Part shown: positions 1,684 to 27,900 of the stretch, in pieces
Position numbering within the stretch: the stretch's first letter is position 1
How the letters are laid out: each line of letters begins with the position of its first letter
IMG/VR virus record: IMGVR_UViG_3300048113_000456
Coordinates: 1 to 55,005 of that record
Origin: a virus
Lineage: Duplodnaviria; Caudoviricetes
DNA: 55,005 bases
Direction: 5' to 3' (one strand)
The notes under the pieces: generated by a model
Databases searched by the model: none
What the model was told of the DNA's origin: nothing
What the model saw: the letters and a program-made list of their open reading frames with translations, nothing else
Program-made: the position numbers and the translations under genes

Positions 1684-1685
1684 AT

Positions 1686-2075: not shown

Positions 2076-2088
2076 GGAAAATAAAACA

Positions 2089-2715
2089 ATGGCAATTTCA
2101 TTCAATAAAGTTAAAGGCGAAGCTCAAAAATCATCAATCACTACCTACAAATATAACGAAGGTGACAACAAGATCCGTTTAGTCGGTGACGTTCTAGCTC
2201 GCTACGTATACTGGGTAACTGGTGAAAACGATAAGAACATTCCACTAGAGTGTTTATCTTTTGATCGTAACCAAGAACGCTTTAACAACCAAGAAAAAGA
2301 TTGGGTTCGCGAGTTCTATCCTGACCTAAAATGTGGTTGGTCTTACGCAATGCAGTGTATTCACAATGGTGAAGTAAAAGTAGTTAACTTGAAGAAAAAG
2401 TTATGGGAACAGATTCTAACTGCTGCTGAAGACTTAGGCGACCCTACAGATCCAGATACTGGATGGGATGTTTGCTTCAAGCGTGTTAAAACTGGCCCTC
2501 TAGCATACAATGTTGAGTATCAACTACAAGCATTAAAATGCAAGCCACGCGCATTAGACGCAGACGAGCAAGAGTTAATTGCTAGTTTAAAATCTATGGA
2601 TGATGTTATGCCTCGTCCTACGCCAGATGCACAAAAAGAGTTGTTAGACCGTATTCACGGTGCTACAGCAAATGAGATCGACGAGTCTATTGAAGACGAA
2701 TTTAAAGTAGACTAA
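2089..2715 (+). CDS. D11: T5 D11-like putative ssDNA-binding protein
   Basis: RBS AAGGA; RLVGDVLARYVYW, LGDPTDPDTGWDV and FKRVKTGP segments; acidic C-terminal tail. Confidence 0.8.
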   Translation: MAISFNKVKGEAQKSSITTYKYNEGDNKIRLVGDVLARYVYWVTGENDKNIPLECLSFDRNQERFNNQEKDWVREFYPDLKCGWSYAMQCIHNGEVKVVNLKKKLWEQILTAAEDLGDPTDPDTGWDVCFKRVKTGPLAYNVEYQLQALKCKPRALDADEQELIASLKSMDDVMPRPTPDAQKELLDRIHGATANEIDESIEDEFKVD

Positions 2716-2716
2716 T

Positions 2717-3670
2717 ATGATCTTATTTACCGCAGATTGGCACATTAAGTTGGGACAGAAAAATGTCCCTAAAGAATGGGCTTACAAACGATACGCACTG
2801 TTCTACGAGCAAGTACGTGAGTTAGAAAGTAAAGTTGATTTGCATATAATTGGTGGCGATCTTTTTGATCGTCTTCCCAATATGGAAGAGTTAGAGTTGT
2901 ATTTCGATTTTGTTCGTGATGTAACCGTAGAGACTATTATCTTTGACGGAAACCACGAAGCAACTAAAAAGAACAAAACGTTCTTTGATCAGTTACGAAA
3001 CGTTACTACAGCTCTAAATCCTCTAGTTAAAGTTGTTACGTCTACTACAGAGTATGATGGTTATAGTATACTTCCGTATGCTGATATTCATAAGAAAAAC
3101 ATCTTTGATACACTAGACAAATCTAAGGCTTTATTTACTCATGTACGTGGTGAGATTCCACCGCACGTAAAACCTGAAATAGATTTAGAGTTACTAGCAG
3201 ACTTTCCTGTAGTATTTGCAGGAGATCTACACTCTCACAGTAACACACAACGTAACATTGTATATCCAGGTAGTCCAATGACAACTTCCTTTCACAGAAA
3301 CGAAGTCTCAACGGGGTATCTACTAATAGACCCAACTACGTGGGGATGGACATGGCACGAATTTGAGCTACCTCAACTAATTCGTAAAACAGTGTTAAGT
3401 CCAGATGATATGCTGCCTACAGACTATCATCATACAATTTATGAAATTGAGGGCGATATTCAAGAGTTATCGCAGATACAAAACTCAGAGTTGCTTGATA
3501 AGAAAGTTGTCAAGAGGGCTACAGAAGCTACATTAGTTCTTAATAAAGAAGCTACGATAGAAGAAGAGCTAGTAGAGTATCTAACCTATATTCTTGAATT
3601 AGACGAAAAACGTATACCAAACATTATAGGAACATTCAATGATTACGCTTCAAAGGTTGAAATGGAGTAA
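2717..3670 (+). CDS. D12: SbcD/Mre11-like metallophosphoesterase nuclease subunit (T5 D12-like)
   Basis: ADWH, GGDLFD, GNHE, GDLH and YPGSP motifs. Confidence 0.9.
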   Translation: MILFTADWHIKLGQKNVPKEWAYKRYALFYEQVRELESKVDLHIIGGDLFDRLPNMEELELYFDFVRDVTVETIIFDGNHEATKKNKTFFDQLRNVTTALNPLVKVVTSTTEYDGYSILPYADIHKKNIFDTLDKSKALFTHVRGEIPPHVKPEIDLELLADFPVVFAGDLHSHSNTQRNIVYPGSPMTTSFHRNEVSTGYLLIDPTTWGWTWHEFELPQLIRKTVLSPDDMLPTDYHHTIYEIEGDIQELSQIQNSELLDKKVVKRATEATLVLNKEATIEEELVEYLTYILELDEKRIPNIIGTFNDYASKVEME

Positions 3671-5438
3671 TGTTTTTAGTTATGGTCCAGACAACGAACT
3701 AGACCTATCTGAAAGCAATGTTACTCAAATCATTGGTACTAACGGTATGGGCAAATCGTCCATACCTCTTATTGTTGAGGAGGCTTTGTATAACAAAAAC
3801 TCCAAGGGTATCAAAAAAGCAGATATTCCAAACCGTTACTTAAAAGATGGCTACAAGATAGAACTTGAATTTACTAAAGATACTAAGACATATGTCGTTA
3901 AAATCAATCGTAAAGCAAGTATCAAAATAGCCCTTTTTGAGGACGGTGTAGATATTAGTAGTCATACGGCTACAAATACTTACAAGACGCTTCAGGATAT
4001 TATTGGTATTGATTTTAAAACCTTCTCACAGTTGGTTTATCAAAATCCAAATACTAGCCTACAGTTTCTAACTGCTACTGATACAAACCGTAAAAAGTTC
4101 TTAATTGACTTATTACATTTAGACAATTATGTGAAGTTATTTGATTTATTCAAAGATGAAGCAAAGAGAGTTAGTACGAATATTACCAGTCTTCAATCTA
4201 AGTTAAATACGATTGAAAAGTGGTTGGAAAACAATAAACTTGAGAGTACCGAAGTATTAGAACTATTAAATATTTCTATTGACACGGAAGATGACGAGGA
4301 AGCTTTAAGTTCTTTACGAGTAGAATTAGAAAATATTTCGGAAAAAAATAAAAAAATCTCAAAAAACAATCAGTACAAAGAACTACTGAATCAAGTTGAT
4401 ATTAACGAGATCAACAATATAGACGCTACAGAAAAGCTATCCTACGATAAGTTACAATCTGAAGTAGGTAGTCTTAAACAAACCGTAGCGGGTGCAAAGC
4501 AAGTCCTAACAAAACTGGAAAAGTTGGGAGATAGTTGCCCCACTTGTGAACAGTCTGTTGATACTGAGTTTAAAAACTCTATGATTGAAGCAGAGCAGGA
4601 TAAAATAGAAGCGGCTAAAACTAGAAATGCGGAAATCCAAAAGCAGATTGCTGAGATTAAGACGAACAACTTGGAATATGAGCGTAAAGTACGAGGACAA
4701 AAAGAGTGGGAAGAATTGTACCGAAGTGTCGACAATGACCTGCCCTCTACTCCTTTGGATCGAAGACAGCTCGAATCAGAGTTTAAAGAAATACAAGCCC
4801 GTATTCGTGAAGCTCGAAGTAAGCTCCAAGAAATAGCAGATGAGAACGAAAGACGTACTAAGCAAAACACACGTATTTCCATCATCAAAGAGCAAACTGA
4901 TGAGTTTAAAGATCAACTTGATGAAGTATCAGCTTTACTAAGTGAAGAACAGTCAATATCTTCTAATTTAGAAGTATTAAAAAAGTCGTTTAGTACAAAC
5001 GGATTACTAGCATATAAGATAGAGAATCTTGTAAAAGAGTTAGAAGAACTTACAAATCACTATCTTGCAGAATTATCAGATGGTAGATTTACACTTGATT
5101 TTAGCATTACGAATGACAAGTTAAACGTAAACGTCACAGATAACGGCAACGTAGTTGATATTCTAGCACTGAGTTCAGGAGAATTAGCACGAGTAAATAC
5201 TTCAACATTATTAGCAATACGCAAACTAATGAGTAGTATTTCCAAGTCACAAATCAATGTACTATTTCTTGATGAAGTTATATCAGTACTTGATGAAGTA
5301 GGTAAAGAAAAGCTAGTAGAAATACTAATAGCAGAAGAAAACTTAAACAGCTATCTTGTTAGCCACCAGTGGCAACATCCACTTCTTGAAAAGATTGAAG
5401 TGGTTAAAGAAGATAATATAAGCAAGTTGGAGGCTTAG
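3639..5438 (+). CDS. D13: SbcC/Rad50-like ATPase (T5 D13-like)
   Basis: Walker A GTNGMGKS, coiled coil with CPTC zinc hook, signature LSSGE, Walker B LFLDE. Confidence 0.92.
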   Translation: MITLQRLKWSNVFSYGPDNELDLSESNVTQIIGTNGMGKSSIPLIVEEALYNKNSKGIKKADIPNRYLKDGYKIELEFTKDTKTYVVKINRKASIKIALFEDGVDISSHTATNTYKTLQDIIGIDFKTFSQLVYQNPNTSLQFLTATDTNRKKFLIDLLHLDNYVKLFDLFKDEAKRVSTNITSLQSKLNTIEKWLENNKLESTEVLELLNISIDTEDDEEALSSLRVELENISEKNKKISKNNQYKELLNQVDINEINNIDATEKLSYDKLQSEVGSLKQTVAGAKQVLTKLEKLGDSCPTCEQSVDTEFKNSMIEAEQDKIEAAKTRNAEIQKQIAEIKTNNLEYERKVRGQKEWEELYRSVDNDLPSTPLDRRQLESEFKEIQARIREARSKLQEIADENERRTKQNTRISIIKEQTDEFKDQLDEVSALLSEEQSISSNLEVLKKSFSTNGLLAYKIENLVKELEELTNHYLAELSDGRFTLDFSITNDKLNVNVTDNGNVVDILALSSGELARVNTSTLLAIRKLMSSISKSQINVLFLDEVISVLDEVGKEKLVEILIAEENLNSYLVSHQWQHPLLEKIEVVKEDNISKLEA

Positions 5439-11648: not shown

Positions 11649-14600
11649 TCTGAACCATCCCAGTAAATTGTATTATAATCAGATGCCGAAGATACTTCTG
11701 TAAATACGTTGCCTGATCCTGTATATCTCCCATACACAGTGGTGTCTGTATCTCTAGAAGTGCCTGTAGCACGGTTTGTAGATACAACAGTGTCAAATAA
11801 TGTGACAAATGCGGTTGTTGTATCAAATGTTGTCGATGCCGAAGTATCGAAAGTAGTTACATATACACTGCCTGTAGATCTTGAAGTAGCTCGGCTAGTA
11901 CTTCTGCTAGTGTTTCTAGAAGTTTGTGTAGCTAGGGTAGTACCTCTACTAGTATTAAACGTAGTGTTAAATGCAGTCGTTGTGTTAAACGCAGTACTTC
12001 TATTTGTGTTAAACGTAGTAGTTGTATTTCTGCTTGTATTAAAAGCAGTTACATTAGACGTTTCAGTAGCTAAAGAAGTTTCTGATGTTGTTTCAAATGT
12101 TGTGTTAAATGCCGTAGTAGTAGCAAGGGTTGTATTAAACGTAGTAGTTGTATTAAACGCTGTAGTACTACTTCTAGTTGTATTAAACGTAGTAGTTGTG
12201 TTAAATGCTGTTGTACGAGAAGTTTCATTTGTCGTATCAAAAGCTGTTACAAACGTAGTAGTTGTGTTAAACGCAGTAGTTGTGTTAAATGCTGTAGTAG
12301 TTCCACGGTCTGTACCGGTAGTTCTAGTAGTAGCAAAAATACTATAAGTAGCTCTACTTGTGTTAAACGTAGTTACTGTACCAAATGCAGTATAAGTACT
12401 ACGGCTTGTGCCTGTTGCTCTTGAAGTATCAAAGTAGCTAGTGTACGATGTTACTGTAGCAAATGCAGTAGTTGTGTTAAATGCAGTTGTTGTACTACGA
12501 CTTGTACCAGTAGTTTTACTTGTGTTAAACGCAGTAGTTGTGTTAAATGCAGTTGTTGTATTAAACGTGGTAGTTGTGTTATTACCAGTACCCGTTGTAC
12601 GTGTGGTATTGTACGTAGTAGTAAATGCTGTATACGTGCTGAACGCTGTTACAGTATTAAACGCAGTTGAAGTACCACGACTTGTACCAGTACCTTTGCT
12701 AGTATTAAATACCGTGCTTGTATTATACGTAGTGGTTGTATTAAACGCAGTAGTTGTATTATTACCTGTGCCAGTATTTCTATTCGTGTTAAAGTTTGAT
12801 ACATACGCAGTGTACGTAGCAAAAACAGTAGTTGTGCTAAACGCTGTATTAGTGTTACGACTTGTACCCGTACCTCTACTGGTGTTAAATGCAGTAGTTG
12901 TATTATACGCAGTAGTAGTTGTAAAGGTAGTAGTAGTGTTTAGACCCGTACCCGTTGTACGACTAGTATTAAAGTACGAAGTGTATGCAGTATACGTAGC
13001 AAATGCAGTTGTAGTAGCAAACGAAGTTGTAGTGCCACGACTTGTGCCGGTATTTCTATTTGTATTAAATACAGTACTTGTAGCATACGCAGTAGTTGTA
13101 GTAAATGCTGTAGAAGTTGTTATACCTGTTCCAGTAGTTCTACTTGTATTAAAGTTTGATACATAAGCAGTATAAGTACCAAAAGTAGTTACAGTAGAAA
13201 ATGCTGTGGTAGTACCACGATCAGTGCTAGTAGCTTTACTAGTATTAAACGCAGTAGTTGTATTATACGCAGTAGTTGTCGTAAAGGTAGTAGAGGTGTT
13301 TAAACCAGTACCCGTTGTACGAGTTGTATTAAAGTAGCTAGTATATGCAGTATACGTCGCAAATGCAGTTGTAGTAGCAAAGGAAGTTGTAGTACCGCGA
13401 CTTGTACCCGTACCTCTGCTAGTATTATAAGTTGTGCTTGTATTATACGTAGTGATTGTATTAAACGCAGTAGTTGTATTATTACCTGTACCAGTATTTC
13501 TATTCGTGTTAAAGTACGAAGTATACGCAGTATAAGTACCAAAAGTTGTTACTGTAGAGAATGCAGTATTAGTAGCTCTGTTAGTAGCTGTAGTTTTGCT
13601 AGTGTTAAATACTGTAGTTGTATTATACGCAGTAGTTGTCGTAAAGGTAGTAGTAGTATTCTTACCAGTACCTGTTGTACGCGTAGTATTGAAGTAAGAT
13701 GTATACGCAGTATAGGTAGCAAATGCTGTAGTAGTAGCAAAAGATGTTGTAGTTCCACGACTTGTACTTGTGCCTCTGCTAGTATTGAACGAGGTCGTTG
13801 TATTATACGCAGTAGTAGTTCCAAATACCGTAGAAGTATTTCTACTTTCAGCAGTATTTCTGCTAGTATTTGTAGCATATACAGTAGTGAAGGTAGTTGT
13901 AAACGCAGTACTAGTATTAAAAGAAGTAGTTGTGTTACGACCTTCAGCAGTATTTCTAGACGTAGCAGTACCGTATACAGTTACAAACGTAGTATTGAAG
14001 CTAGTAGTTGTTCCGAAGGATGTAGTTGTGTTACGACCTTCAGCAGTGTTTCTAGAGGTAGATGTAACTCTAGAAGTACCTCTAGACGTAGCAGTGGCTT
14101 TACTAGTGTTAAACGTAGTTGCTGTAGTATATGCAGTAGTTGTATTATATACAGTAGTAGTATTTCTGCTTTCCCCTGTAGTTCTGCTCGTGGCAGTAAC
14201 AAATACCGTAGTAAATGCCGTAGTAGTATTACGACTTGTAGAAGTTGCTCTACTTTCACCTGTATTTCTTGAAGTATTACGAGAAGTGTTACGATATTCG
14301 GCAGTGGCTCTACTTGTTGCAAATGTAGTAACAAATGTAGTAGTACGATACTCAGCCGTAGCTCTGCTTGTATTGAATGTAGTTACAAACGTAGTAGTTC
14401 GTGATGTATTGTAATACGTTAAGAATGTAGTAGTACGGTACTCAGCAGTAGCTCTTGAAGTGCCTGTAGCTCTGCTAGTATTTCTAGACGTGTCAAATAC
14501 GGTAGTAGTATTAAAACTAGTAGTTGTATTATGGTCAACAGTACTACGAGAAGTATTACGATACTCAGCAGTGGCTCTAGAAGTACCCGTAAGTCTAGAA

Positions 14601-17600
14601 GTATTAAAACTTACATTCTGTCTACGTCTAATTGTAAAAATATAAGTTTGGCTAGAACTATTATATACATAGCTAGTACCTTTTTGATACTCGTAACCAT
14701 TAGTGATTCGTGTAGTTGAGCCAAATAATGTACCTATGCCTGCTTGGTTCCATATACCTCCACCACCTTGGCTATATACAGAACTAATCTGCTCAACACC
14801 ATAGTAAACATAGTAACTATAATAACTTCTTTGGTAAGCAGTGTATGTTCCAATTACAGAAGTTACGAATGTAGTAGTAGTATTAAAGCTGGTAGTAGTA
14901 TTATGGTCTACAGTAAGGAAAGTAGTAGTACGATACTCAGCAGTAGCTCTCGAAGTTCCTGTAGCTTTAGAAGTTGCGTATACAGTACCAAATGTAGTAG
15001 TCGTGTTAAAACTTGTAGTAGTATTATGATCAACAGTACTACGAGACGTATTTCTTGAAGTATCAAATACTGTGGTACGAGATGTGTTTCTCGATGTATT
15101 AAAAGTTGTTGTAGTATTATGATCTACAGTACTACGAGACGTATTTCTTGACGTATCAAATGTAGTTGTAGTATTATGGTCTACAGTTAAGAATGTAGTC
15201 CCAAAAACAGTAGACGTAGTATAGGACGTAGTAGTATTAAAAGCAGTAGACGTACCTCTGCTAGTTCCTCTACTTGTGTTCGTTCCAAATACTGTGCTTG
15301 TATTATAAGCAGTAATGGTAGTACGACTTGTAGAAGTTGCTCGACTTTCTCCTGTATTACGTGCAGTATTAAAGACTGTAGTAGTATTAAATACAGTAGT
15401 AAAGGATGTAGTAGTTCCAAAAGTAGTAGATGTTGTATACGCTGTATAAGTCGCACGACTTGTACCAGTAGTACGTGACGTTCCGCGAGTAGTGTTTCTG
15501 CTAGTATTTGTTGAGAACGTTGTACTTGTAGTATAAGCAGTGTAAGTAGCTCTGCTTGTTACCGTTGATCTAGACGTTCCGCGAGAAGTGCTTCTGCTAG
15601 TATTAGTTGCGAATACTGTATTTGTTGTATAAGCGGTTAGGGTAGCTCTACTTGTAGCAGTAGTACGACTTTCCGCAGTTGTACGAGTAGTGATAAATGT
15701 AGTAGTTGTATTAAATACTGTAGTAGTTCCACGACTTGTACCAGTTGATCTTGTAGTTGTAGTATTTTTACCTGTAGCAATAGAAGTAGTAAATGTAGTT
15801 ACAGTATTGAATGCTGTGTATGTTCCACGACTTGTAGCAGTACCACGAGACTCTCCAGTTGTACGAGAGGTGTTAAATACTGTAGTAGTACCAAATACTG
15901 TGGTTGTGTTACGGTTAGTACCAGTATTTCTACTTGTAGCCGTGTTTCTACCTGTAGCTATACCTGTAATAAATACAGTATTTGTAATAAATGCAGTGTA
16001 TGTGTTACGGCTTGTACCTGTAGCTCTACTTTCTGAAGTTGTACGAGATGTGTTAAATACTGTAGTAGTATTAAACGCAGTAGTAGTACCGCGACTAGTA
16101 CCCGTTGCTCTTGTAGTTGTGGTATTTTTACCTGTAGCAATAGAAGTTACAAACGTAGTTGTAGTGTTGAAAGCAGTATAAGTATTGCGACTTGTAGCAG
16201 TACCACGAGACTCACCCGTTGTGCGAGTAGTAATAAATGTAGTTGTGGTGTTAAATACTGTTGTAGTTCCACGACTTGTACCAGTATTTCTGCTTGTAGC
16301 AGTATTAAGACCTGTAGCTATACCTGTAATAAATACGGTGCTAGTGTTAAAAGCAGTATAGGTATTTCTGCTGGTACCAGTTGATCTGCTTTCTATGGTA
16401 GTACGTGAAGTATTGAATACTGTGTTTGTGTTAAATGCTGTAGTAGTACCACGGCTTGTACCGGTAGATCTAGTTGTAGTTGTATTTACACCAGTAGCGA
16501 TAGAAGTTACAAACGTAGTTGTAGTATTAAATGCTGTGTATGTGTTACGACTTGTAGCAGTGCCGCGAGACTCGCCCGTTGTACGAGTAGTAATAAATGT
16601 AGTTGTCGTGTTAAATGCAGTAGTTGTGTTTCTGTTTGTACCAGTTGTACGACTGGTTGCAGTGTTTAAGCCTGTAGCTATGCCTGTGATAAATACAGTA
16701 TTTGTGATAAATGCAGTGTATGTGCTACGACTTGTGCCAGTAGATCTACTTTCTGAAGTTGTGCGAGAAGTATTAAATACTGTAGTAGTGTTAAACGCAG
16801 TAGTAGTTCCACGACTTGTACCAGTTGCTCTAGTAGTTGTAGTATTTCTACCAGTACCTAAACTTGTATTAAATGTAGTAACAGTGTTGAAAGCAGTATA
16901 AGTGCTACGAGAAGTAGCTGTGCTCTTAGACGTACCAGTTGTACGAGTAGTGATAAACGTAGTTGTAGTATTAAACGCAGTGGTTGTACCACGGCTTGTA
17001 CCAGTAGTTCTTACCGTAGTAGTGTTTCTGTCTGTACCAATACTTGTTTGGAATGTAGTGCTGGTGTTGAATGCAGTAGTAGTATTTAGACCAGTTCCGG
17101 TAACGTTATTTGTGTTAAATACAGTAGACGTGGTTGTACCAGTATTAAACGTAGTTGTAGTATTAAACGCTGTAGTAGTATTACGACTAGTTCCAGTTAC
17201 TTTAGATGTAGCTGTGGTTCTAGTCGTGTTTCTAGAAGTAATAAATGTGGTGTTGAACGCAGTTGTACGACTAGTCTCTGTAGACTTTGAAGTGTTAAAC
17301 GTTGTCGTTGTGCTACGGCTAGTACCAGTTGCTTTTGAAGTTTCAAATACAGTATTTGTACTACGAGAAGTTCCACGAGACGTATTAAACGTGGTGTTGA
17401 ATGCTGTGATTGTGTTAAACGCAGTTGTACGAGTTGTTTCAAATACTGTACCGCTTTCACGAGTAGTTTCAAAAGTAGTAGTACGAGAAGTTTCTGTAGC
17501 TAAAGTAGTTCCGCGAGAGGTATTAAACGTAGTGTTAAACGCAGTAGTTGTATTAAATGCTGTAACAAATGTAGTAGTAAAAGTTGTAGTAAATGCTGTA

Positions 17601-17890
17601 GTTGTGCTTACAGTAGTATCTACACTTGTTGCAAACGTAGTAGTACGACTAGTAGCAGTACTAGCAGAAGTTCCTAAAGAAGTTTCAAATGTTGTGTTAA
17701 ACGCAGTAGTAGTATTAAAAGCTGTAGATGTTGCTGTAGAAGTAGCTGTTATAGCCTGCCACGCAGTAGAAAAAGTTACGTCACCTTTTGCTAGTACGTA
17801 TCCAACAGAACGTAAAGTGCCTGCGGTGGCCTTTACTATTATTTGCTTTGGCTCTACTAGGGCGGAGCCATTCCACACCTTGATAGTCAT
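11636..17890 (-). CDS. giant Thr-rich repeat protein with mirror-complementary halves; putative beta-hairpin fibre
   Basis: 2084 aa; Thr at alternating positions; NTTTAF/GTSR units; unique central domain of ~80 aa; KVWNGS and YWDGSEW ends; located in the fibre gene cluster. Confidence 0.8.
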   Translation of the reverse strand: MTIKVWNGSALVEPKQIIVKATAGTLRSVGYVLAKGDVTFSTAWQAITATSTATSTAFNTTTAFNTTFETSLGTSASTATSRTTTFATSVDTTVSTTTAFTTTFTTTFVTAFNTTTAFNTTFNTSRGTTLATETSRTTTFETTRESGTVFETTRTTAFNTITAFNTTFNTSRGTSRSTNTVFETSKATGTSRSTTTTFNTSKSTETSRTTAFNTTFITSRNTTRTTATSKVTGTSRNTTTAFNTTTTFNTGTTTSTVFNTNNVTGTGLNTTTAFNTSTTFQTSIGTDRNTTTVRTTGTSRGTTTAFNTTTTFITTRTTGTSKSTATSRSTYTAFNTVTTFNTSLGTGRNTTTTRATGTSRGTTTAFNTTTVFNTSRTTSESRSTGTSRSTYTAFITNTVFITGIATGLNTATSRTTGTNRNTTTAFNTTTTFITTRTTGESRGTATSRNTYTAFNTTTTFVTSIATGVNTTTTRSTGTSRGTTTAFNTNTVFNTSRTTIESRSTGTSRNTYTAFNTSTVFITGIATGLNTATSRNTGTSRGTTTVFNTTTTFITTRTTGESRGTATSRNTYTAFNTTTTFVTSIATGKNTTTTRATGTSRGTTTAFNTTTVFNTSRTTSESRATGTSRNTYTAFITNTVFITGIATGRNTATSRNTGTNRNTTTVFGTTTVFNTSRTTGESRGTATSRGTYTAFNTVTTFTTSIATGKNTTTTRSTGTSRGTTTVFNTTTTFITTRTTAESRTTATSRATLTAYTTNTVFATNTSRSTSRGTSRSTVTSRATYTAYTTSTTFSTNTSRNTTRGTSRTTGTSRATYTAYTTSTTFGTTTSFTTVFNTTTVFNTARNTGESRATSTSRTTITAYNTSTVFGTNTSRGTSRGTSTAFNTTTSYTTSTVFGTTFLTVDHNTTTTFDTSRNTSRSTVDHNTTTTFNTSRNTSRTTVFDTSRNTSRSTVDHNTTTSFNTTTTFGTVYATSKATGTSRATAEYRTTTFLTVDHNTTTSFNTTTTFVTSVIGTYTAYQRSYYSYYVYYGVEQISSVYSQGGGGIWNQAGIGTLFGSTTRITNGYEYQKGTSYVYNSSSQTYIFTIRRRQNVSFNTSRLTGTSRATAEYRNTSRSTVDHNTTTSFNTTTVFDTSRNTSRATGTSRATAEYRTTTFLTYYNTSRTTTFVTTFNTSRATAEYRTTTFVTTFATSRATAEYRNTSRNTSRNTGESRATSTSRNTTTAFTTVFVTATSRTTGESRNTTTVYNTTTAYTTATTFNTSKATATSRGTSRVTSTSRNTAEGRNTTTSFGTTTSFNTTFVTVYGTATSRNTAEGRNTTTSFNTSTAFTTTFTTVYATNTSRNTAESRNTSTVFGTTTAYNTTTSFNTSRGTSTSRGTTTSFATTTAFATYTAYTSYFNTTRTTGTGKNTTTTFTTTTAYNTTTVFNTSKTTATNRATNTAFSTVTTFGTYTAYTSYFNTNRNTGTGNNTTTAFNTITTYNTSTTYNTSRGTGTSRGTTTSFATTTAFATYTAYTSYFNTTRTTGTGLNTSTTFTTTTAYNTTTAFNTSKATSTDRGTTTAFSTVTTFGTYTAYVSNFNTSRTTGTGITTSTAFTTTTAYATSTVFNTNRNTGTSRGTTTSFATTTAFATYTAYTSYFNTSRTTGTGLNTTTTFTTTTAYNTTTAFNTSRGTGTSRNTNTAFSTTTVFATYTAYVSNFNTNRNTGTGNNTTTAFNTTTTYNTSTVFNTSKGTGTSRGTSTAFNTVTAFSTYTAFTTTYNTTRTTGTGNNTTTTFNTTTAFNTTTAFNTSKTTGTSRSTTTAFNTTTAFATVTSYTSYFDTSRATGTSRSTYTAFGTVTTFNTSRATYSIFATTRTTGTDRGTTTAFNTTTAFNTTTTFVTAFDTTNETSRTTAFNTTTTFNTTRSSTTAFNTTTTFNTTLATTTAFNTTFETTSETSLATETSNVTAFNTSRNTTTTFNTNRSTAFNTTTAFNTTFNTSRGTTLATQTSRNTSRSTSRATSRSTGSVYVTTFDTSASTTFDTTTAFVTLFDTVVSTNRATGTSRDTDTTVYGRYTGSGNVFTEVSSASDYNTIYWDGSEWTE
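12430..13870 (-). repeat. eight 180-bp (60-aa) coding repeats, C-terminal arm
   Basis: The recurring xTYTAYTSYF landmark occurs 8 times at 60-aa spacing; boundaries approximate. Confidence 0.8.
15600..17041 (-). repeat. eight 180-bp (60-aa) coding repeats, N-terminal arm
   Basis: The recurring (S/G)IATG(L/K/V/R)N landmark occurs 8 times, alternating A/B variants; boundaries approximate. Confidence 0.8.
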
Positions 17891-17891
17891 G

Positions 17892-18275
17892 TTATACTAT
17901 ATACCAGACATAGCCAGTTGGCTTCCCAGACCCATCAGTAGGTACAGTGCTTGTAACTTCAGAAATATCATTATTAAAGTCTGATAAATTATCTGGCGTA
18001 CTATAACTGAACACACCCGTAGCGGCATTGTAAGCAAGATCCCCAGTAGCAGAAACTGCATTTCTAGCTCGGGTTGTTGAAAAGTAAGGTTTGCTAGGAT
18101 CTTCGGCGAGATCGGCAGTAGTTCTGTCGTTTATACGTATAACAGTGCCGTCGCTTTTTTTAATATACATAAGACCGTCATATGTATTTATAGCAACTTC
18201 ACCTAAGGCTAGTTGTGATGCATTTGGTGCGGTATCTGGCGAAGCCGAACGCTTTAATTTAATAGTTTGTGCCAT
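17892..18275 (-). CDS. small tail-fibre adaptor-like virion protein
   Basis: N-terminal IKLKRS...GEVAINTYDG fibre motif; RBS AGGAG. Confidence 0.65.
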   Translation of the reverse strand: MAQTIKLKRSASPDTAPNASQLALGEVAINTYDGLMYIKKSDGTVIRINDRTTADLAEDPSKPYFSTTRARNAVSATGDLAYNAATGVFSYSTPDNLSDFNNDISEVTSTVPTDGSGKPTGYVWYIV

Positions 18276-19697: not shown

Positions 19698-20048
19698 TTA
19701 AAAGGCTCCTCCGTCCTGAACACCATCCTCTTCGGCAGTGACTAAAGGAAACCAATCAGTAGTTCCTTCAACAGTTCGGTAAACATAAAAAATGTCATTT
19801 GTTGTATCGTACCAAGTATCACCAATTTCTACATTGGAGCCAGAAGGCTGCGCAGGGGTACGAAAATCCTGAGCTGCGATTTGTTCGAGAGCCCCTTGTA
19901 AATTTGTTGCACTAATGTATCCAGTAGGATTTACAACAACAGAAGTTGCCCCTACATCTGCAAGAGCTAAATTAGCTTGTACTTCAGTAGTAGTACTAGA
20001 GACAGTAACTTCTGTAATATACGGTGCAATTTGTATGCTAATAGCCAT
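19698..20048 (-). CDS. small fibre adaptor-like structural protein
   Basis: ATNLQGALEQI, GDTWYDT motifs; ends in DGGAF. Confidence 0.6.
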   Translation of the reverse strand: MAISIQIAPYITEVTVSSTTTEVQANLALADVGATSVVVNPTGYISATNLQGALEQIAAQDFRTPAQPSGSNVEIGDTWYDTTNDIFYVYRTVEGTTDWFPLVTAEEDGVQDGGAF

Positions 20049-20386
20049 TATTTAGTTACTTCCGCTACAACAGTTGCCTGCCCCTCCAAGAGTCTAGTTA
20101 CCATATCATCATTTTCAGTAAAAAGCTCTAGGTCATAAAAATATATTCCTGCCGTAAGTGCAGTTGTGGTAGAGTTTCCGAGTGCCATTTTTACTTGTCC
20201 ATTAGCAGCATCTGTCACAGTACAAGTAAACGTAGCAGCCGCAGACGCGTCAGTTTTCTTTTGACGCATTTGAGCACGAGCTGAGTAGCCCGTTAAGTTT
20301 TTAGCGGATCCGTCCTCAGACAGTGTTAACTGAATCGCAAAATCAGATCCCTGTTCGATCGTTAAGTTATATGTTGCTGCTGGCAT
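20048..20386 (-). CDS. BppU-like fibre/baseplate attachment protein
   Basis: YNLTIEQGSDF...NLTGYSARAQMR...YFYDLEL...RLLEG pattern typical of phage Ig-like attachment domains. Confidence 0.6.
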   Translation of the reverse strand: MPAATYNLTIEQGSDFAIQLTLSEDGSAKNLTGYSARAQMRQKKTDASAAATFTCTVTDAANGQVKMALGNSTTTALTAGIYFYDLELFTENDDMVTRLLEGQATVVAEVTK

Positions 20387-20408
20387 TTATCTTTCTCCTA
20401 TGTGTGAA

Positions 20409-20437
20409 ATTATATCAAGGTGATCATTTTTAGTCAA
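20409..20437 (-). promoter_or_regulatory. sigma70-type late promoter
   Basis: TTGACT-17-TATAAT with an upstream A-tract. Confidence 0.8.
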
Positions 20438-20466
20438 GTTATTTTTTTGGGTAGGTATATAAGTAT

Positions 20467-21345
20467 TTAGTTATTTAAAAATTTTCTTAGCCAATTCTCT
20501 TTATCTAAATGGGTCATAAATAGAGGTCTGTATATAATGGGCAATTCCCAAATACTACTACGCCATTTAGGTACAGTGTTAGAAACCTTTTCTTTAAATA
20601 AAGCTACAGAATCTTTTTGGGCAAACTTTTTTTGTATAGAGCCCTCTGTGGTTCTATCTACTATGTACATGTCACTTGACATAGTTAAACAGTAGCATAA
20701 ATTACCTTTTTGATGCTCTGCTAGCAGTTGATAAGAATACAAATGATCTTCTGCTACAGGCAAGTCTTCGCTCATCTTTATTTTAGCTGATTTTTTACTC
20801 TGAAGTATAATAAAATCCGTAGATTTTGGTAAATCTTCTGACCATATATGAGACTCTCCTATGCCTAATTTTTTACTCGGAGTAACTAAACTAATACCCC
20901 ATACTCCGGCTTGTAAATCTTCCGAAACTTGAGCTACGTGTCCTGCATTTACTTTAGTATTTAAAATATCTGTAGGTATAACCCCAAGTACATCAATACA
21001 AGGAAACTGTTTTATGTGGCTATATAAGGACTTTATATAGGAAGGATATAATAAGTCATCTCCATCTATTTGGCTAATAAAGTCACAGTTACTATTTAAA
21101 AATAAGTCTAAACAAGAGTTTTTACCTTTTCCAGGTAATCCATTACTTTCTGTTTGTATAACAGGATACGGCAGCTTTAACTTTAATACTTCTTGAAAAT
21201 AGTTAGAATTAGTAGAATTTACTACTATAATAGGAGTAAGTTCAACCTCGGGTATTTGTTTAATTTCTAATAAATTATTTACAATTCTTACTAACTTTTC
21301 TATACTATTTGTGGTTAGTATAGTAAGCATTATTTTTACCTTCAT
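20467..21345 (-). CDS. GT-A fold (GT2-like) glycosyltransferase
   Basis: ESNGLPGKGKNS...QIDGDDLL (DxDD) and AEDH motifs. Confidence 0.7.
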   Translation of the reverse strand: MKVKIMLTILTTNSIEKLVRIVNNLLEIKQIPEVELTPIIVVNSTNSNYFQEVLKLKLPYPVIQTESNGLPGKGKNSCLDLFLNSNCDFISQIDGDDLLYPSYIKSLYSHIKQFPCIDVLGVIPTDILNTKVNAGHVAQVSEDLQAGVWGISLVTPSKKLGIGESHIWSEDLPKSTDFIILQSKKSAKIKMSEDLPVAEDHLYSYQLLAEHQKGNLCYCLTMSSDMYIVDRTTEGSIQKKFAQKDSVALFKEKVSNTVPKWRSSIWELPIIYRPLFMTHLDKENWLRKFLNN

Positions 21346-21347
21346 AC

Positions 21348-21896
21348 TTAATCCTCTGTATTAAAGAAAAAAGTCTGAAAAAGTCTGGCATTAGTTTTAT
21401 CTGTACCAAAACCTGGAAGTACACTTCTATGGTAGTAATTAGCATCGTATATCACTGCTCTATTATATAAATTTTTAGCTTCTGCTATAATTTCCCAATC
21501 CGATTCTAAAGTTTTATGTTTGTTAAAGTCTACTAGGGCTTCTTTTGAGTGTTTATATATGCCCGTAGGTTTATGTCTGTAAATAGCAGTGCCAGAGTCC
21601 AGAGGAGCATCTGGTGTTAGGTAAACTACACATGCCCAGCTTGTCTGATCGTGATGTATCCAGGTAGTTGCATCTTGTGTAGTATATTGAAACGCAGTGT
21701 TGTACTCTGCAGGCCAATAAGTTATTTTTTTGTTAAGTATTTTTTCAAAAGTTTTTTGAATTTCGTAAAACCATGCACCTCCACAAGCTTTAGTGCGTTT
21801 TCCAGGGTAGTTCCCTGTTATATTAAACTCCCAGGATAGTGCTAGTTTTCTAACACTATCCGGATCTTGATAAAAATTATCTTGTATTATAAACAT
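21348..21896 (-). CDS. 2OG-Fe(II) oxygenase (DUF6445-like)
   Basis: DNFY, YPGKR, WIHHD (HxD), VVYLTP, GT, YNRAVIY...YHRS, RLFQTFF. Confidence 0.75.
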   Translation of the reverse strand: MFIIQDNFYQDPDSVRKLALSWEFNITGNYPGKRTKACGGAWFYEIQKTFEKILNKKITYWPAEYNTAFQYTTQDATTWIHHDQTSWACVVYLTPDAPLDSGTAIYRHKPTGIYKHSKEALVDFNKHKTLESDWEIIAEAKNLYNRAVIYDANYYHRSVLPGFGTDKTNARLFQTFFFNTED

Positions 21897-21901
21897 ATAT
21901 G

Positions 21902-24900
21902 TTATCCTAGGTTGCCGATTTTTACTCTGATATTACCAGATCCATCGTATATTAAAATTCTATTGTTAGTTCCGTCTATCCCTAGCACGTTTTCGTTCGT
22001 ACCTCCCGGCGTATAATTAGACGCTCTAGAATACTCTGTAAAAGTTGTGCCAGATCCAGAATATTCCCAAGCTCTATCTGAAGGTATATGCCAGTATACG
22101 TCTCCTGCTAAAGCAGGGCTTTTTACATTTTCTATTGCTACTTTTTTATTAGCGTCTGTAGCTATAGTAGAACCTGTATCAAATGCTATAGTGTTTCCTG
22201 CCGCGCCTTGTGCTCCAATCTCCCCTTGAGGACCTGTTTCACCTTGAGCACCTTGCTGTCCTTGAGGGCCTTGAGCACCTTGGGGCCCTGTTTGACCTTG
22301 GGCTCCTTGTTGTCCTTGTGGACCTTGATCACCTTCAGCACCTTGAGGCCCTGTTTCACCTTGTGGACCATCATCACCCTGAGCACCTTGGTCACCTTGA
22401 GCACCTTGAGGTCCTGTTTCACCTTGAGGACCATCATCCCCTTGAGGACCTTGATCACCTTCTGCACCTTGAGGTCCTGTTTCACCTTGAGGACCATCAT
22501 CCCCTTGAGGACCTTGATCACCTTCTGCACCTTGAGGACCAGTAATACCTTGAGCACCTTGTTCGCCTTGAGGACCTTGATCACCTTCTGCACCTTGAGG
22601 ACCAGTAATACCTTGAGCACCTTGTTCGCCTTGAGGACCTTGGTCACCTTCTGCACCTTGAGGACCAGTAATACCTTGAGCACCTTGTTCGCCTTGAGGA
22701 CCTTGGTCACCCTCAGCACCTTGAGGACCAGTAATACCTTGAGCACCTTGTTCGCCTTGAGGACCTTGGTCACCTTCAGCACCTTGAGGGCCAGTAATAC
22801 CTTGAGCACCTTGTTCGCCTTGAGGACCTTGGTCACCCTCAGCACCTTGAGGACCTGTTTCGCCTTGAGGACCATCATCACCTTGTGGACCTTGATCACC
22901 CTCAGCGCCTTGAGGTCCTGTAATACCCTGTGCACCTTGCTCACCTTGAGCACCTTGGTCACCTGTAGCACCTTGAGGGCCTGTAATACCTTGTGGACCT
23001 TGCTCACCTTGTGGTCCTTGCTCACCTTGGTTACCTTGCAAGCCTTGAGGACCTTGAGCTCCTTGCTCTCCTATAGGACCTTGAGCGCCTACTACTAGGA
23101 AAGCAGAATATGCATGAAAACTAGAAGCATCTATAGCAGAGGAGGAGGCTTCCTGAGCGTAAGTTTGGTAATTTATATTAGTAACACCTCCCGGCACTCC
23201 GGTAGCTATTCCGTATATAGAGTAAGTTCCACCTACAGTTGAAAAACTTGCATTTACTGTTTGTTTTCCTACGGGTGTTAGTTTATTATAGTTTATTATT
23301 TCATACCATAAAGTATCTACTAAGACATCTTCTACTAACTCTTGGGTCCCAGGCTCTTTATTAGATACGGAATCATCTCCTCCCCATACCCAGTGTTTCC
23401 CTGAGTGTAAAACAAGATCTCCATTATCATAGCTAGTAGAAGAAGACCAGGCACTTTGATTAGCAGGGGCACCTCCATAATCTTCATCAGAAGGATCTAA
23501 ATAACCTCTAGGAGCATTTGAGTAGTAAGGAAAGACTGTTTCTCCAGTATCTCCTACAGCTCCCTGCAGTCCTGCACCTCCTTGTGGGCCAGTAATACCT
23601 TGAGGACCTGTCTCACCTTGAGCACCTTGAGGGCCTTCACCACCTTGTGGACCAGTAATACCTTGAGGACCTTGGTCACCTGTAGCACCTTGAGGACCTG
23701 TCTCACCTTGAGCACCATCAGCACCTTGAGGACCTTGGTCACCTGTAGCACCTTGAGGACCTGTCTCACCTTGAGCACCATCAGCACCTTGTGGACCTTG
23801 ATCACCTGTTGCACCTTGAGGACCTGTCTCACCTTGAGGACCATCATCACCTTGAGGACCTTGATCACCTATATTACCTTGAGGACCTGTTTCACCTTGA
23901 GGGCCGTCTTCACCTTGAGGACCTTGATCACCCTCAGCACCTTGAGGACCTGTTTCACCTTGAGGACCGTCTTCACCTTGAGGACCTTGATCACCCTCAG
24001 CACCTTGAGGACCTGTCTCACCTTGAGGACCGTCTTCACCTTGAGGGCCTTGATCGCCGATGTTACCTTGAGGACCTGTCTCACCTTGAGGACCGTCTTC
24101 ACCTTGAGGGCCTTGATCACCGATGTTACCTTGAGGACCTGTTTCACCTTGAGGACCGTCTTCACCTTGTGGACCTTGATCGCCTATGTTACCCTGTGGA
24201 CCTTCTTCACCTTGAGGACCGTCTTCACCTTGAGGACCTTGGTCACCTATATTGCCTTGAGGGCCTTGTTCTCCTTGTGGACCTTCTTGACCTTGAGGCC
24301 CTTGATCACCTATATTACCTTGAGGACCTGTTTCACCTTGAGGACCCTCTTCACCTTGTGGACCTTGTTCACCTTGAGCACCTTCTTCACCTTGAGGACC
24401 TTGATCACCTTCAATGCCTTGAGGGCCTTGAGCACCACGAATAGACTTAGTAAAGGTTTGAACTCTAGTGTAGGTTGTTTCACCTCCTACGCCATCTACA
24501 ACAACTATCGTAAAGGTAATACTTCCGGTATTTGCACTAAGAGCTGTAATACTACCTAGTGTGTAAGAATTTGAGTCTGTAGTAGGAGTGCTATCTTCTG
24601 TAACATTAGTAGAAGATACATTAGTAACTCTAAACGACGGAGTTTGGTATTCTTCACTATCATCATAAGGTATATAAGTATTTCCTATAATTGCTTTGAT
24701 AGTAGTACTTGTATTGGTAAAATCTAATGTGTCGTTTTCAAGAACTGGTACACTACAGTTTTCATTACTAAGTACTATATTTACGCCGTCTACTACTCCG
24801 TCAGCTACGCCCTCTACGCCTGGGTATCCGCTTAAAGGATGATACGCAGAGTATAGTCTAGAAACTTTATTTCCGTTTTGAGTATCAATCTGCGTAACTA

Positions 24901-27900
24901 CATGTCTTATCCAGTAGTATCTAGTCTCTGTTTCTGTAGAAAGTATTTTATCCAGGAATATATTGCCAGAGGTAGTACCTATTTTTTCCGCATTAGCAAA
25001 ACTATCGTCTGTGGATCTCCAGATTTCTGTATCAAAAGCAGCTTCATTAAAGTCTGAAGAATTAGTCCAAGTAAGTTCTATACCACCTTTTCTTGAGTTT
25101 AAATTTTGTGCTAAATCTGAAGGAGAAAGTACACGTACAATTGGACTTGCTTGTGGAGCTTGATACATTGGAGCTACAGCTGAATTTAAACGCTCTAATA
25201 TATAAGCATCATCATTATGCTCTACGGCTACAACCTGTACAAGATTATTAGAGTCTGCTTTCAGTGTTTGTATTCTAAATAATTTCTTTTCCCAGTTAAA
25301 TCTAGGATAAGTTATGGCAATTATTTCTCCAGAAAGAAGTAAGTAAGACTTAGGAGACAACGTTAACGATATAGATAAACCCGCTCTTGATTCGTCAAGA
25401 AGTTGTTTAATATTTAGACGAGCATTATAGTAGTTAGAGATACCACCTGCTTTAAAGTTTCCTTGACGTTTAATACCTTTATCTTCTTCCAAATAAACTG
25501 AATTAAAGAAAGATAAACTTCTAGTATTGAATGAGTTAGAAGGGTCTACTATAGATGCTGTAATAGCATTATACGTTTTATTTATACCCTTATCTTCTAA
25601 CTTTATATCACCTATAATATCATCTTCTGTGATAATTTCAATAGCAGGATCAAAGTTTTCAATAGCTTTAGCTTTTGTTTTTACTTTTAAATAGTATTTT
25701 CCTTGCTGGTATCGTAAAATACCATTAAATTGGCTCAGTAAATTATTTACGTTTTCAAAAACAGATGTAGAGGTATCAATAACAATATTTGTCTGGTGTC
25801 TAGTAACGTATCTTTGGTCTTGGCTGTCCCAACCTAAGTACTTCCAGTAGAGAACAGAATCAGAGTCGTACAAAGAGTATCCAGTAACAACAGCAGTTTC
25901 ATTGTTGTCTAGAGTAGTGATTTGTTTAACGATAGGATTTTGATCTCCACCGTTCATAACATCTGTACTAGTGTTTACTGTTATATCGTTAGAAGTTCCA
26001 GTTAATGTCAGAGTTCCAAAAGCACCTGTAGGCTTAACAATAGTTCCTTTAGAGGTTACAATTGAAGCGGTTAAAGTGCTGTCTTCATAATGGTAAACTA
26101 AGTCGTTTACTTCATACTCTTTCCAGTCAAACCATTTTTTACCTAATTTTCCTATAACGTCTGTAAATACTACTTGTTTGTATGTAGTACCTTTGTATGT
26201 TTTTAACTCTACAGACTCTACAGTACCTTTAAACATTAACTGGCCTGTAGCAGGGTATCTATATTCTTGACCTACTTGTACAGTAGAATATTGACCACAT
26301 AAAATTGTTACGTCAGAACGCTGTTCACAAGCTAATGCTGACTCGTAAAAACTAGGTAAATCAATTAAATCTAAAGACAAGCCTTTACCGTATCGCTCAC
26401 TAGTTAAGTAATCTAACAATTGTAGCGCAGGGTTTATTGTAACCCTATAGTCTCCGAAGTTATTTGTAGAAACTATAGAAGTAGAGTGCCCATAGCTATA
26501 TGAGTAACCAGTAAGATCTAAAGTACCTTCTACTATTAAAATGTTATTAGTGTCAATAAAAGTCTGAAAGCTTGAGTCCTCCGGAGAAAGTACGGACTTA
26601 GTATATGTAGTGCTGCCCTCTTTTGTGAATTTTACATTTAAACTACTTATTACAGATAGTGCAGATGTGTCTGAGCTGTCTCTTGTATAGGCGCTTACAT
26701 TTTTAAACTCTAAATCTACAGAATCTATTGTTACACTTTGAGTATCAGAGTATAAGTCTACAAGCTCTCCTGAATTTTGTAAAGTATAAGTAGGATTTGA
26801 AAAGAATTGATCAAGATTTGAGTTTTTCTGCACTACTCTTGCTTTGAAGGTAGTAGTATTTATAGAGTAAAGAGTTACTCTAAATGTTGCATCCGTTGTG
26901 CCCTCTGTAAGAGAAAGTTGCAGAGAAAAAGCCTGGTCATTAGTATTTTTTAAGGCTTTTATTAAGTTTTTGTCAAAAGTAGATAAACCTGATAAGTCAA
27001 TATCATAGTATGCTGATACTAAATCGCTAGGAGTTCTTTTTAATTCTGGGTCGTAAGAAAATACTTGCTTAGTAGATACTCTTGTTAGACTAACATCAGT
27101 TAAGTCTGAGGGATTAAGTCTAGAGCCTACGTCATACTCATCGCTTGTAGCTGCGGTTGTACCAGAGAAAGACTCTGATACCATGACCCAAGAATCGCTT
27201 CCAGAGGTCATAGTTATGCTTTTAGCCTCCCCAGCGTCTATTATATCTTGTACAGATTGAGTAGCACATTTTACTTTAAAACGTACGTCTAAACTGCCGT
27301 CAGCACTGTACAAAGTAAACTTATCTACAATTTCGGCTGAAGAAGTTTGTCCAGTATTTAAAGTTATGGTTACTGTTTGTCCTAAGTAAAAGTTATCTGC
27401 TTCTGCTGGATCAGTAGTACCTCTATAAGTACCATCATAGTTTTGACAATTTACATATTTGCCTTTTACTACATAAGAATACTCTCCTGCTTTTCCACTT
27501 TCTGAGGTAACAGTATCTTTTGTTACAACGTATGCAGTGTCAAGTAACTGGTGGTTAGCTGTCCAATATTCGCTAGGGTCTTTATCGTAGTAGTCATTTT
27601 GTACTAAAAATTTACCTTGAGAGGCGTTTTTAACTAAGGTAGGGTCAGCTCTTTGGTTATCGAGCCCTGCGTGGAAAGTAAAATGTAAATCATTATTTGA
27701 TTTCCAAGAAAATGTTTTACCGTGTGTAATACCCGTATTACTTACAAGTCTATGTTGAAACGCATCACTTAATTCATAAGATGCCTGATACAGTCTATTT
27801 GTAGTTGGAGTCTGTATTCTTTCATAGTTTTCGTCGCCTAGTAAGAAAGCTTCAGTTTGTATGGCAGAAGATTGATCTAAGGTATAAAAGTCTGCTCCGC

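Follow-up and report, generated by a model that had tools for sequence, protein, structure and literature searches.

Near the middle of a 2084-residue, threonine-rich viral protein, two short motifs, VDH and EYR, recur five times each, and the locus raises the question of whether these motifs face each other across two strands of a folded chain and, if so, what they form there. The protein, here termed P0001, is encoded by a tailed virus (Duplodnaviria; Caudoviricetes) in IMG/VR record IMGVR_UViG_3300048113_000456, which we analyzed in its entirety (55,005 nucleotides; completeness estimate 71%) and refer to as the window. A first reading of the bare sequence (the original prediction) had taken the protein for a hairpin and the motifs for cross-strand partners near its tip. 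Based on the results below, we suggest that P0001 is probably a fold-back β-ribbon in which five VDH/EYR pairs form bulged rungs close to the tip.

VDH and EYR motifs occupy mirrored positions on both sides of the tip

P0001 contains 799 Thr (38%), a single Pro, no Cys and only five His, all of which sit within the VDH motifs. VDH starts at residues 903, 922, 953, 994 and 1118 and EYR at residues 985, 1109, 1150, 1180 and 1198; all ten motifs, whose window coordinates were verified by translation, thus lie within positions 14285-15190 (residues ~901-1202), a zone of ~110 residues per arm that adjoins the tip only. Translation bears out the proposed distribution of four TVDHN and one AEYR in the N-terminal arm (N arm) and four AEYR and one TVDHN in the C-terminal arm (C arm). 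Read outward from the tip, the motif order V-E-V-V-V of the N arm is matched by E-V-E-E-E in the C arm; each VDH thus meets an EYR. The positions of V and E in the mirrored pairs add up to 2103, 2103, 2103, 2102 and 2101, and the spacings between successive motifs from the tip outward (N arm/C arm) are 9/9, 32/32, 31/30 and 19/18, so that the VDH side always has one extra residue. These sums, together with the register test described below, confirm the suggestion that VDH lies opposite EYR in every mirrored pair, including the one in which the two motifs have traded arms (the swapped pair).

The probability that five partners of matching type would fall by chance on all five predicted positions is 2e-9 (105 free positions) to 3e-6 (26 slots). 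The codons of the ten motif copies differ by synonymous changes, indicating conservation at the protein level rather than recent duplication of the DNA. Both observations bear on the idea that the match arose as a by-product of tandem duplication, or by chance, without any physical pairing. The arms do consist of short repeats, and the context RNTSRSTVDHNTTT recurs at three of the N-arm copies; however, neither the probability of the matched layout nor the synonymous differences agree with such an origin, and no DNA mechanism copies mirror-image protein segments to distant parts of a gene. Taken with two further results given below, we regard this explanation as barely credible. A DNA palindrome was also considered and rejected, as the reverse complement of the motif codons does not encode the partner motif.

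The two arms are complementary in a single antiparallel register

Even positions in P0001 (~40-900 and 1122-2040) are occupied by Thr or by a large residue (F, R, Y, E, K) with zero phase slips, and between residues ~40 and 2040 the side-chain parity flips only at the five VDH motifs. To define the register, the even N-arm positions 46-900, outside the motif zone, were paired with the C arm at antiparallel sums i+j=S. At S=2104, the 419 ladder-face pairs include 127 pairs of an aromatic residue with Arg or Lys and 235 Thr-Thr pairs, while Thr meets a large residue in 25 pairs and neither like charges nor two aromatic residues meet at all. The next-best S among the compared sums gave 63 aromatic-cation pairs, compared to 127 at 2104, and the best parallel offset gave 61. 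In a scan of 800 antiparallel sums, the mean was 11.8 such pairs (standard deviation 14.1), with runners-up of 81 pairs at +/-60, i.e. after a slip by one 60-residue repeat.

At S=2104, a complementary partner is available for 128 of the 151 Phe, Tyr, Trp, Arg and Lys residues of the N arm, and the arms are complementary residue by residue over ~860 positions without an insertion or deletion. Mirrored identity, with like residue facing like, showed no peak at this register; the ladder signal is therefore one of complementarity, not of identity. Where Arg is part of an E-x-R sequence, its partner in P0001 is Tyr in 13 of 13 cases.

The positions of D904 and R1200, which belong to the outermost VDH/EYR pair, also add up to 2104. 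A register derived from 127 ladder pairs outside the zone thus predicts this pair exactly, which argues against a by-product of duplication; a compositional artifact is likewise excluded, since the 800-sum scan did not return equal counts at many registers.

A β-solenoid or an ice-binding-type TxT array was rejected as an account of the Thr-rich arms, because it leaves the mirror complementarity of the two halves unexplained. As a separate observation, both arms contain zones of 60-residue periodicity (residues 300-745 and 1380-1800) that coincide under the mirror, and the non-ladder face of P0001 carries a Y/I/V patch once every 60-residue period. These patches could be a signal for lateral packing or supercoiling.

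Each VDH/EYR pair shifts the register by one residue

Moving inward from the outer ladder, the register sums run 2104, 2105, 2106, 2107, 2106 and 2107, with one step per VDH: the ladder persists only if S is raised by 1 after each N-arm VDH and lowered by 1 after the C-arm VDH. With this stepwise register, the 101 positions of the motif zone yield 17 aromatic-cation and 26 Thr-Thr pairs, compared to at most 7 for any single S. In addition, a gapped mirrored alignment based on residue classes only placed four of its five internal gaps inside 'vdhN', while the fifth fell into a Thr run seven residues from VDH1118.

All five pairs, the swapped one included, share one geometry. In each of them, the Asp of VDH faces the Arg of EYR. 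The Thr preceding Val meets another Thr, Val itself meets the residue that follows Arg, and the Thr at H+2 meets the Glu of EYR. Further out, the Phe at H+6 faces an Arg at E-4 in five of five pairs. Position V-3, which holds Phe in two pairs and Arg in three, is likewise matched by a residue of the complementary class at E+6 in all five, pairs 1 and 2 having that rung in common. The outcome is a recurring two-strand module of 11-12 residues, in which …T-V-D-H-N-T-T-T-x-F lies opposite R-A-T-A-E-Y-R…. The strand opposite an ordinary E-x-R rung reads T-x-Y, whereas that opposite EYR reads T-N-H-D and has one residue more. As read from these registers, VDH/EYR is a third kind of rung beside the Thr-Thr/Arg-Phe and E-x-R-Tyr rungs.

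In a classic β-bulge, following Richardson's definition, two residues on one strand lie opposite one residue on the partner strand and the side-chain alternation is shifted. At all five VDH motifs, one extra residue on one strand is found between in-register cross-strand pairs. The likeness extends to the one-residue shift of side-chain alternation and to the local bend or extra twist that is expected from it; the present case differs in being read from sequence register, in recurring five times along a ribbon of ~1000 residues and in always involving an Asp-Arg pair.

Two placements of the step fit the side-chain parity. If it fell between Asp and His, both residues would share the ladder face across from Arg, and Glu would be placed diagonally to His; such an arrangement would yield D-R and H-E contacts, with His replacing the usual Tyr. 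If the step instead fell between His and Asn, His would pair with the EYR tyrosine on the opposite face of the ribbon and Asn would be bulged out, reusing a His-Tyr pair that occurs family-wide. The predicted Asp-Arg contact is supported under both placements.

Most of what had been proposed for the geometry is thus retained. The longer VDH strand, or β-bulge, is recovered as a register step of 1, a parity flip and gaps in 'vdhN'; the swapped pair, which had been viewed as a compensatory change, does not differ in geometry from the other four, with Asp facing Arg; and, of the two suggested salt bridges, D-R is found in all five pairs, while H-E competes with an equally good H-Y alternative.

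The original prediction had also considered a metal site built from these residues. His, Asp, Glu and perhaps Tyr would then bind Fe, Zn or a similar metal, within a single hairpin or on the axis of a three-hairpin bundle. All five His are located next to Asp and opposite Glu and Tyr, the motifs are invariant in a metagenomic relative (see below), and His-lined metal sites are present on the fiber axes of T4 gp37 and gp12. However, by parity the Tyr points away from the face that bears Asp and Glu, and the Arg in the middle of the cluster is directly opposite Asp, so that a cation would have to compete with it. Each site offers one His, and a search of P0001 for HxH motifs returned none, each of the five His in its 2084 residues being isolated in a VDHN sequence. 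Moreover, His elsewhere in the family pairs with Tyr as a ladder rung, and there is no sign of a trimer. We consider a metal site very unlikely and this part of the prediction unsupported, although a site formed where several hairpins bundle is conceivable.

A close relative changed both arms together

A metagenome scan yielded one close relative, L113, which is represented by a 5'-truncated open reading frame of 1292 amino acids (aa) and is 72% identical to P0001 over the motif zone. Its motif order is the same (4+1/1+4), and all five of its His are in VDH. The sums of Asp and Arg positions are 1099, 1099, 1099, 1098 and 1097, and the outer ladder, found independently, has a sum of 1097 (62 pairs compared to 29 for the next). 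If the family rule S=L+20 (L, protein length; see below) holds, the full L113 protein would be ~1507 aa long.

Between pairs 3 and 2, L113 has 34/34 residues where P0001 has 32/32, i.e. a two-residue insertion in both arms, and the Phe/Arg pattern in this segment is changed but still complementary. This difference is a compensatory change of the kind that the hairpin model predicts, and the joint alteration of both arms speaks against duplication as the source of the motif match.

The proposed fold-back layout is shared by a family of probable fiber proteins

Family members were found by synteny with the phrog_26179 gene and subsequently by searches with the N- and C-terminal domains, which gave 29 and 113 confirmed viral loci, respectively; in total, the family comprises >100 viral loci. 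The N- and C-terminal domains of P0001 are 46-65% and 55-64% identical to those of three homologs (alignments A1 and A2), and P0001 conforms to both family signatures (N-domain, MTIKV…TAW; C-domain, …YWDGSQWTE). The 37 distinct complete proteins, including P0001, span 335-2084 aa (335-1781 aa for the other 36). Their best mirrored register is L+20 in 27 cases, L+22 in nine and L+40 in one; P0001 obeys L+20 (2104=2084+20). In a gapped mirrored alignment, 34 of the 36 homologs need no internal gap, not counting one gap near the base that is forced by the odd anchor of the alignment.

The pairing preferences of P0001 recur in its homologs. Arg in E-x-R faces Tyr in 63 of 63 cases, while other Arg residues are opposite Phe 1045-1072 times and opposite Tyr 152 times. 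The partner of His is Tyr in 153 of 161 homolog cases and that of Glu is Thr in 74 of 94, while Lys is found across from Tyr 234 times and across from Phe 165 times. None of the 36 other distinct complete members has VDH/EYR bulges, and among 84 distinct Thr-rich open reading frame fragments, L113 alone has VDH (five copies) and more than one EYR.

A low-Thr center lies at 0.49-0.53 of the length in all 13 members with a detectable one (5 of 18 are without such a domain); the value for P0001 is 0.508. The apex of family members is a loop of 6-7 residues (…YSRSHTS…), a loop of 12-18 residues or a globular domain of 65-100 residues. These features bear on the alternative that the arms pair between chains, as an antiparallel dimer or swapped trimer, so that VDH and EYR would be juxtaposed across molecules. 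An antiparallel dimer satisfies i+j=constant equally well, phage fibers are mostly oligomers, and the periodic Y/I/V patches on the non-ladder face could serve lateral packing. However, an apex that ranges from 6-7 residues to a ~100-residue domain at the exact midpoint would be awkward at the dyad of a dimer, whose two ends would moreover be identical, leaving it without a distal tip, and zipping within one chain should be kinetically favored. We consider intermolecular pairing unlikely and infer an intramolecular hairpin rather than a swapped oligomer, along with the oligomeric state and the function of the fiber. Together, the ladder register, the gapped alignment, L113 and the family lend strong independent support to the hairpin model.

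Some members of the family show peculiarities of their own. In L007 (1528 aa), the ungapped and gapped mirrored alignments end 226 residues apart; this protein has a globular tip of ~85 residues and ~130 extra repeat residues near the tip on its N side, which makes it asymmetric. L094, L102, L108, L112 and relatives have short apex loops with FCPEGG(T), the sole Cys-bearing element seen in the family, and this sub-family has a different N-terminal domain (MA[IL]YVNDSGTLRQI…). The fiber gene is split in L002 (5500-9880; overlapping frames of 556 aa and 974 aa), while the near-identical gene of L003 is intact (533-4942; 1469 aa), so that the split reflects either misassembly of a repeat or a genuine frameshift. 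L116, a contig of 519,747 bases from a GTDB genome, encodes a 988-aa member (open reading frame 163-3129) followed by open reading frames of 290 and 245 aa. This member lies inside a large scaffold of a SAR92-clade gammaproteobacterium, which suggests a prophage and thereby a host lead for part of the family.

A model for the role of the bulged rungs

In the architecture that we propose, the N arm (residues 46-1011) and the C arm (residues 1096-2040) would run antiparallel and form a long two-stranded β-ribbon, capped distally by the small globular domain, while the N- and C-terminal domains would meet at the base. A cross-strand ladder of Thr-Thr pairs, Arg or Lys against Phe or Tyr, and E-x-R against Tyr would occupy one face. 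In the VDH/EYR pairs, the VDH strand would bear the extra residue, with its Asp opposite the Arg of EYR and its His in contact with either Arg/Glu or the Tyr of EYR, according to which residue is bulged. As far as registers read from two protein sequences can establish it, VDH and EYR are juxtaposed, the register steps by one residue per VDH, and the geometry is identical in the five pairs and in the second protein.

Each bulge with its charge cluster may act as a unique landmark in an otherwise slippery repeat and thereby fix the register. Zipping would start beside the tip, as the C arm emerges, and five charged, bulged rungs would fill that first stretch of ~110 residues. As a one-residue bulge inverts the side-chain phase, a wrong register would set large residues against Thr. 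We favor a register-setting role, since in these highly repetitive arms a shift of 60 residues keeps 81 of the 127 ladder pairs. The bulges, four on one strand and one on the other, may also bend or twist the ribbon locally; in designed β-proteins, β-bulges are described as permitting strand bending (PMC10089152).

The latter property would also suit a different function, in which the pairs serve as pH- or ligand-sensitive hinges, such that His protonation or receptor contact loosens the bulged rungs and the tip-proximal ribbon bends or unzips. His is confined to the VDH sites, and these sites are confined to ~110 tip-proximal residues per arm; bulges are natural bending points (PMC10089152). 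On the other hand, no conformational switch is in evidence, and the absence of the motif from all other family members seen indicates that it is no general part of fiber action; we deem the hinge quite unlikely.

Several points weigh against the fold-back ribbon with bulged, register-setting rungs. AlphaFold2 modeling of residues 890-1210 without an alignment gave local meanders (mean predicted local distance difference test [pLDDT] score 34.6), and modeling of residues 945-1160 with a 35-sequence alignment (A3) gave a mean pLDDT of 48.0, with the arms below 50 and thus too low for contacts to be read, from an input that carried no arm covariation because MAFFT fails to hold the arms in register. 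The residue classes of the ladder were picked after inspection of the sequence, with the scan of all registers as the sole control. The motifs are carried by only two proteins and are invariant in both, leaving no substitution-level covariation within VDH/EYR. Judged by sequence, it is equally plausible for one or the other residue to be bulged, and hence for His to contact Glu or Tyr; an intramolecular hairpin and an antiparallel swapped dimer or trimer would likewise fit equally well. Because 34 of 36 members have no internal gap and none has the motifs, the motifs are not needed for the fold; VDH/EYR is a lineage-specific refinement rather than a fold requirement. Lastly, the role of VDH/EYR as a register lock and kink is conjecture. 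Prediction of a complex between the N-arm segment 890-1011 and the C-arm segment 1096-1210 gave an interaction prediction score from aligned errors (ipSAE) of 0.00 in two runs, which speaks neither for nor against pairing.

Database searches retrieve no known relative

P0001 matched no family in PHROGs v4 (E≤1e-5) or Pfam-A (E≤1e-3). A profile of the tip and inner arms had no match in the PDB at E≤1, and phmmer against 1.84 billion proteins returned one match, to an unrelated low-complexity protein. With tblastn against 50,697 cultured phage records, nothing was found for P0001 or a short family member, apart from a 17-residue chance match of the N-domain. The tip domain is partly folded in the AlphaFold2 model (pLDDT 65-76). 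Searches with the tip model (residues 945-1160) gave no match in the PDB with Foldseek at E≤0.001 and no clear fold in a wide VIA-align comparison (best Z 4.4), and the best score for the tip in the ESM Atlas was 0.83, below the useful range. The tip domain alone had no match among viral contigs, nor did the head-tail genes with megablast. A word-index search found no match for residues 890-1210 and one match for the N-domain of a 437-aa member. A search of one library of open-access full texts likewise found no description of such a fiber.

Genome setting and coordinates

Profile searches against Pfam and PHROGs show that the gene order of the window is that of a distant T5-like siphophage, with genes for terminase, portal, fused protease-capsid, tail tube, tape measure and distal tail protein. 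The last of these is followed by a 2446-aa collagen-repeat fiber, an LtfC-like gene, two genes with tail-fiber N-termini and then the Thr-rich fiber gene (Table 1). This position, past tape measure, distal tail protein, collagen fiber and LtfC-like gene, is that of the lateral (L-shaped) tail-fiber module of T5-like phages; P0001 differs from the fibers of that module in having no similarity to the pb1/LtfA type.

Table 1. Position of P0001, its parts and the adjoining genes in the window (res, residues of P0001)
Feature	Position	Strand	Remarks
Thr-rich fold-back fiber gene (P0001), 2084 aa	11636..17890	minus	Open reading frame and translation
N-terminal base domain, res 1-45 (MTIKV...EP.QI.VK..GTLR.V...TAW)	17756..17890	minus	Conserved in homologs
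N arm, res 46-1011 (966 aa), Thr every second position	14858..17755	minus	Parity track; mirrored ladder i+j=2104
Non-repeat tip domain, res 1012-1095 (NGYEYQKG ... IRRR)	14606..14857	minus	Low-Thr midpoint segment; homologous tips align
C arm, res 1096-2040 (945 aa)	11771..14605	minus	Parity track; mirrored ladder
C-terminal base domain (…VYGRYTG…YWDGSEWTE) and stop codon	11636..11770	minus	Conserved in homologs
TVDHN no. 1 (res 902-906)	15173..15187	minus	Partner AEYR 1197-1200; pair 5, outermost
TVDHN no. 2 (res 921-925)	15116..15130	minus	Partner AEYR 1179-1182; pair 4
TVDHN no. 3 (res 952-956)	15023..15037	minus	Partner AEYR 1149-1152; pair 3
N-arm AEYR (res 984-987)	14930..14941	minus	Partner TVDHN 1117-1121; pair 2, swapped
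TVDHN no. 4 (res 993-997)	14900..14914	minus	Partner AEYR 1108-1111; pair 1, beside tip
AEYR C1 (res 1108-1111)	14558..14569	minus	Pair 1
C-arm TVDHN (res 1117-1121)	14528..14542	minus	Pair 2, swapped
AEYR C2 (res 1149-1152)	14435..14446	minus	Pair 3
AEYR C3 (res 1179-1182)	14345..14356	minus	Pair 4
AEYR C4 (res 1197-1200)	14291..14302	minus	Pair 5
Abutting upstream gene, 127 aa, tail-fiber-type N-terminus (MAQTIKLKRS…)	17892..18275	minus	phrog_17885
Downstream gene, 292 aa	10616..11494	minus	phrog_26179, function unknown; conserved partner of fiber gene
Second downstream gene, 251 aa	9913..10668	minus	Open reading frame of similar size follows in homolog loci

Residues 1-47 of the 127-aa upstream gene product match phrog_17885, 'tail fiber protein' (E=3.8e-8), making it a possible adaptor, and a tail-fiber-like gene abuts the family gene upstream in six of six further loci. 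The phrog_26179 gene is syntenic with the fiber gene in L002-L005 and in five of the six further loci, where it is accompanied downstream by a ~240-aa gene; the sixth locus stops too early. The 251-aa gene of the window matched no Pfam or PHROG family. Across nearly all loci (such as L063, L045, L012, L040, L038 and L116), and on differing phage backbones, a ~290-aa phrog_26179 gene and a ~240-aa gene trail the fiber gene; their products could assist the assembly of the Thr-rich arms or modify them enzymatically.

Other genes of the window also deserve mention. One 650-aa open reading frame (39954-41906, minus strand) joins Peptidase_S78 (residues 37-155) and Phage_capsid (residues 360-628), while protease and capsid are two annotated genes in the T5-like phages matched by tblastn. 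The 2446-aa fiber (20048-29242, minus strand) has ~10 collagen-repeat stretches with a GC content of up to 0.49; downstream of it lie a phrog_1644 (DUF6445) gene, a gene with a weak, sub-threshold similarity to glycosyltransferase-2 (E 3.9e-4) and the LtfC-like gene, which together with the collagen fiber could represent a fiber modification set. A JmjC/cupin-domain protein is encoded amid phage replication genes (858-1658, plus strand).

Discussion

Known fold-back proteins resemble P0001 in part. The long tail fiber protein gp37 of T4 is a trimer that binds iron via HxH motifs and folds back over its last ~200 residues. As in its distal needle, the chain of P0001 would run to a distal tip and fold back antiparallel, and His residues mark special sites along the shaft; in contrast to the trimeric gp37 with its HxH-bound iron, the whole 2084-aa chain would be folded back and HxH motifs are missing. 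P0001 showed no sequence or profile similarity to gp37 in the Pfam, PHROG and PDB searches. In SMC and Rad50 proteins, a single chain has a central apex and antiparallel arms, and its N- and C-terminal parts form the base. The likeness, equal and co-varying arms that pair antiparallel from a central apex, is an analogy of layout only, since the arms of these ATPases are α-helical coiled coils, whereas those of P0001 would be β-strands with a Thr/Arg-Phe ladder in a virion fiber.

OspA provides an example of a single-layer β-sheet protein without a conventional hydrophobic core. For peptides, one report describes β-hairpins as favored by Thr-rich sequences (PMC11936462), and these would share with P0001 a β-structure that relies on Thr and cross-strand pairs rather than a conventional hydrophobic core. 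Such peptides, like OspA, involve tens of residues, while P0001 would have ~960 consecutive cross-strand pairs governed by a pairing code. The Thr-rich fold-back fiber architecture appears to be new.

Taking these elements together, we tentatively propose, as one possible reading, that a single chain is zipped onto itself (~960 pairs, ~0.3 µm if extended) by a residue code of T-T, R-F, K-F/Y, H-Y and ExR-Y pairs, with the bulged EYR/(D)H rung as a register mark comparable to that in a nucleic-acid hairpin. That rung might set the start of zipping and introduce defined kinks, in what would be an undescribed form of programmable, complement-like strand pairing.

If the model holds, the fiber would be unlike the trimeric β-helices, β-spirals and coiled coils known from viruses: a single, once-folded polypeptide with a readable code, whose length is set by repeat number (335 to >2000 residues). 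The VDH/EYR pairs, as the sole sites in P0001 at which the code includes an insertion, offer a natural handle for tests of the model and bear on the question of what keeps so long and repetitive a hairpin from slipping. The code itself (Arg-Phe, His-Tyr, E-x-R-Tyr and Asp-Arg at bulges) could serve the design of long, thin protein rods. For marine phage biology, the family would represent an unrecognized and widespread host-contact appendage, found on >100 uncultured viral contigs and in one SAR92 genome.

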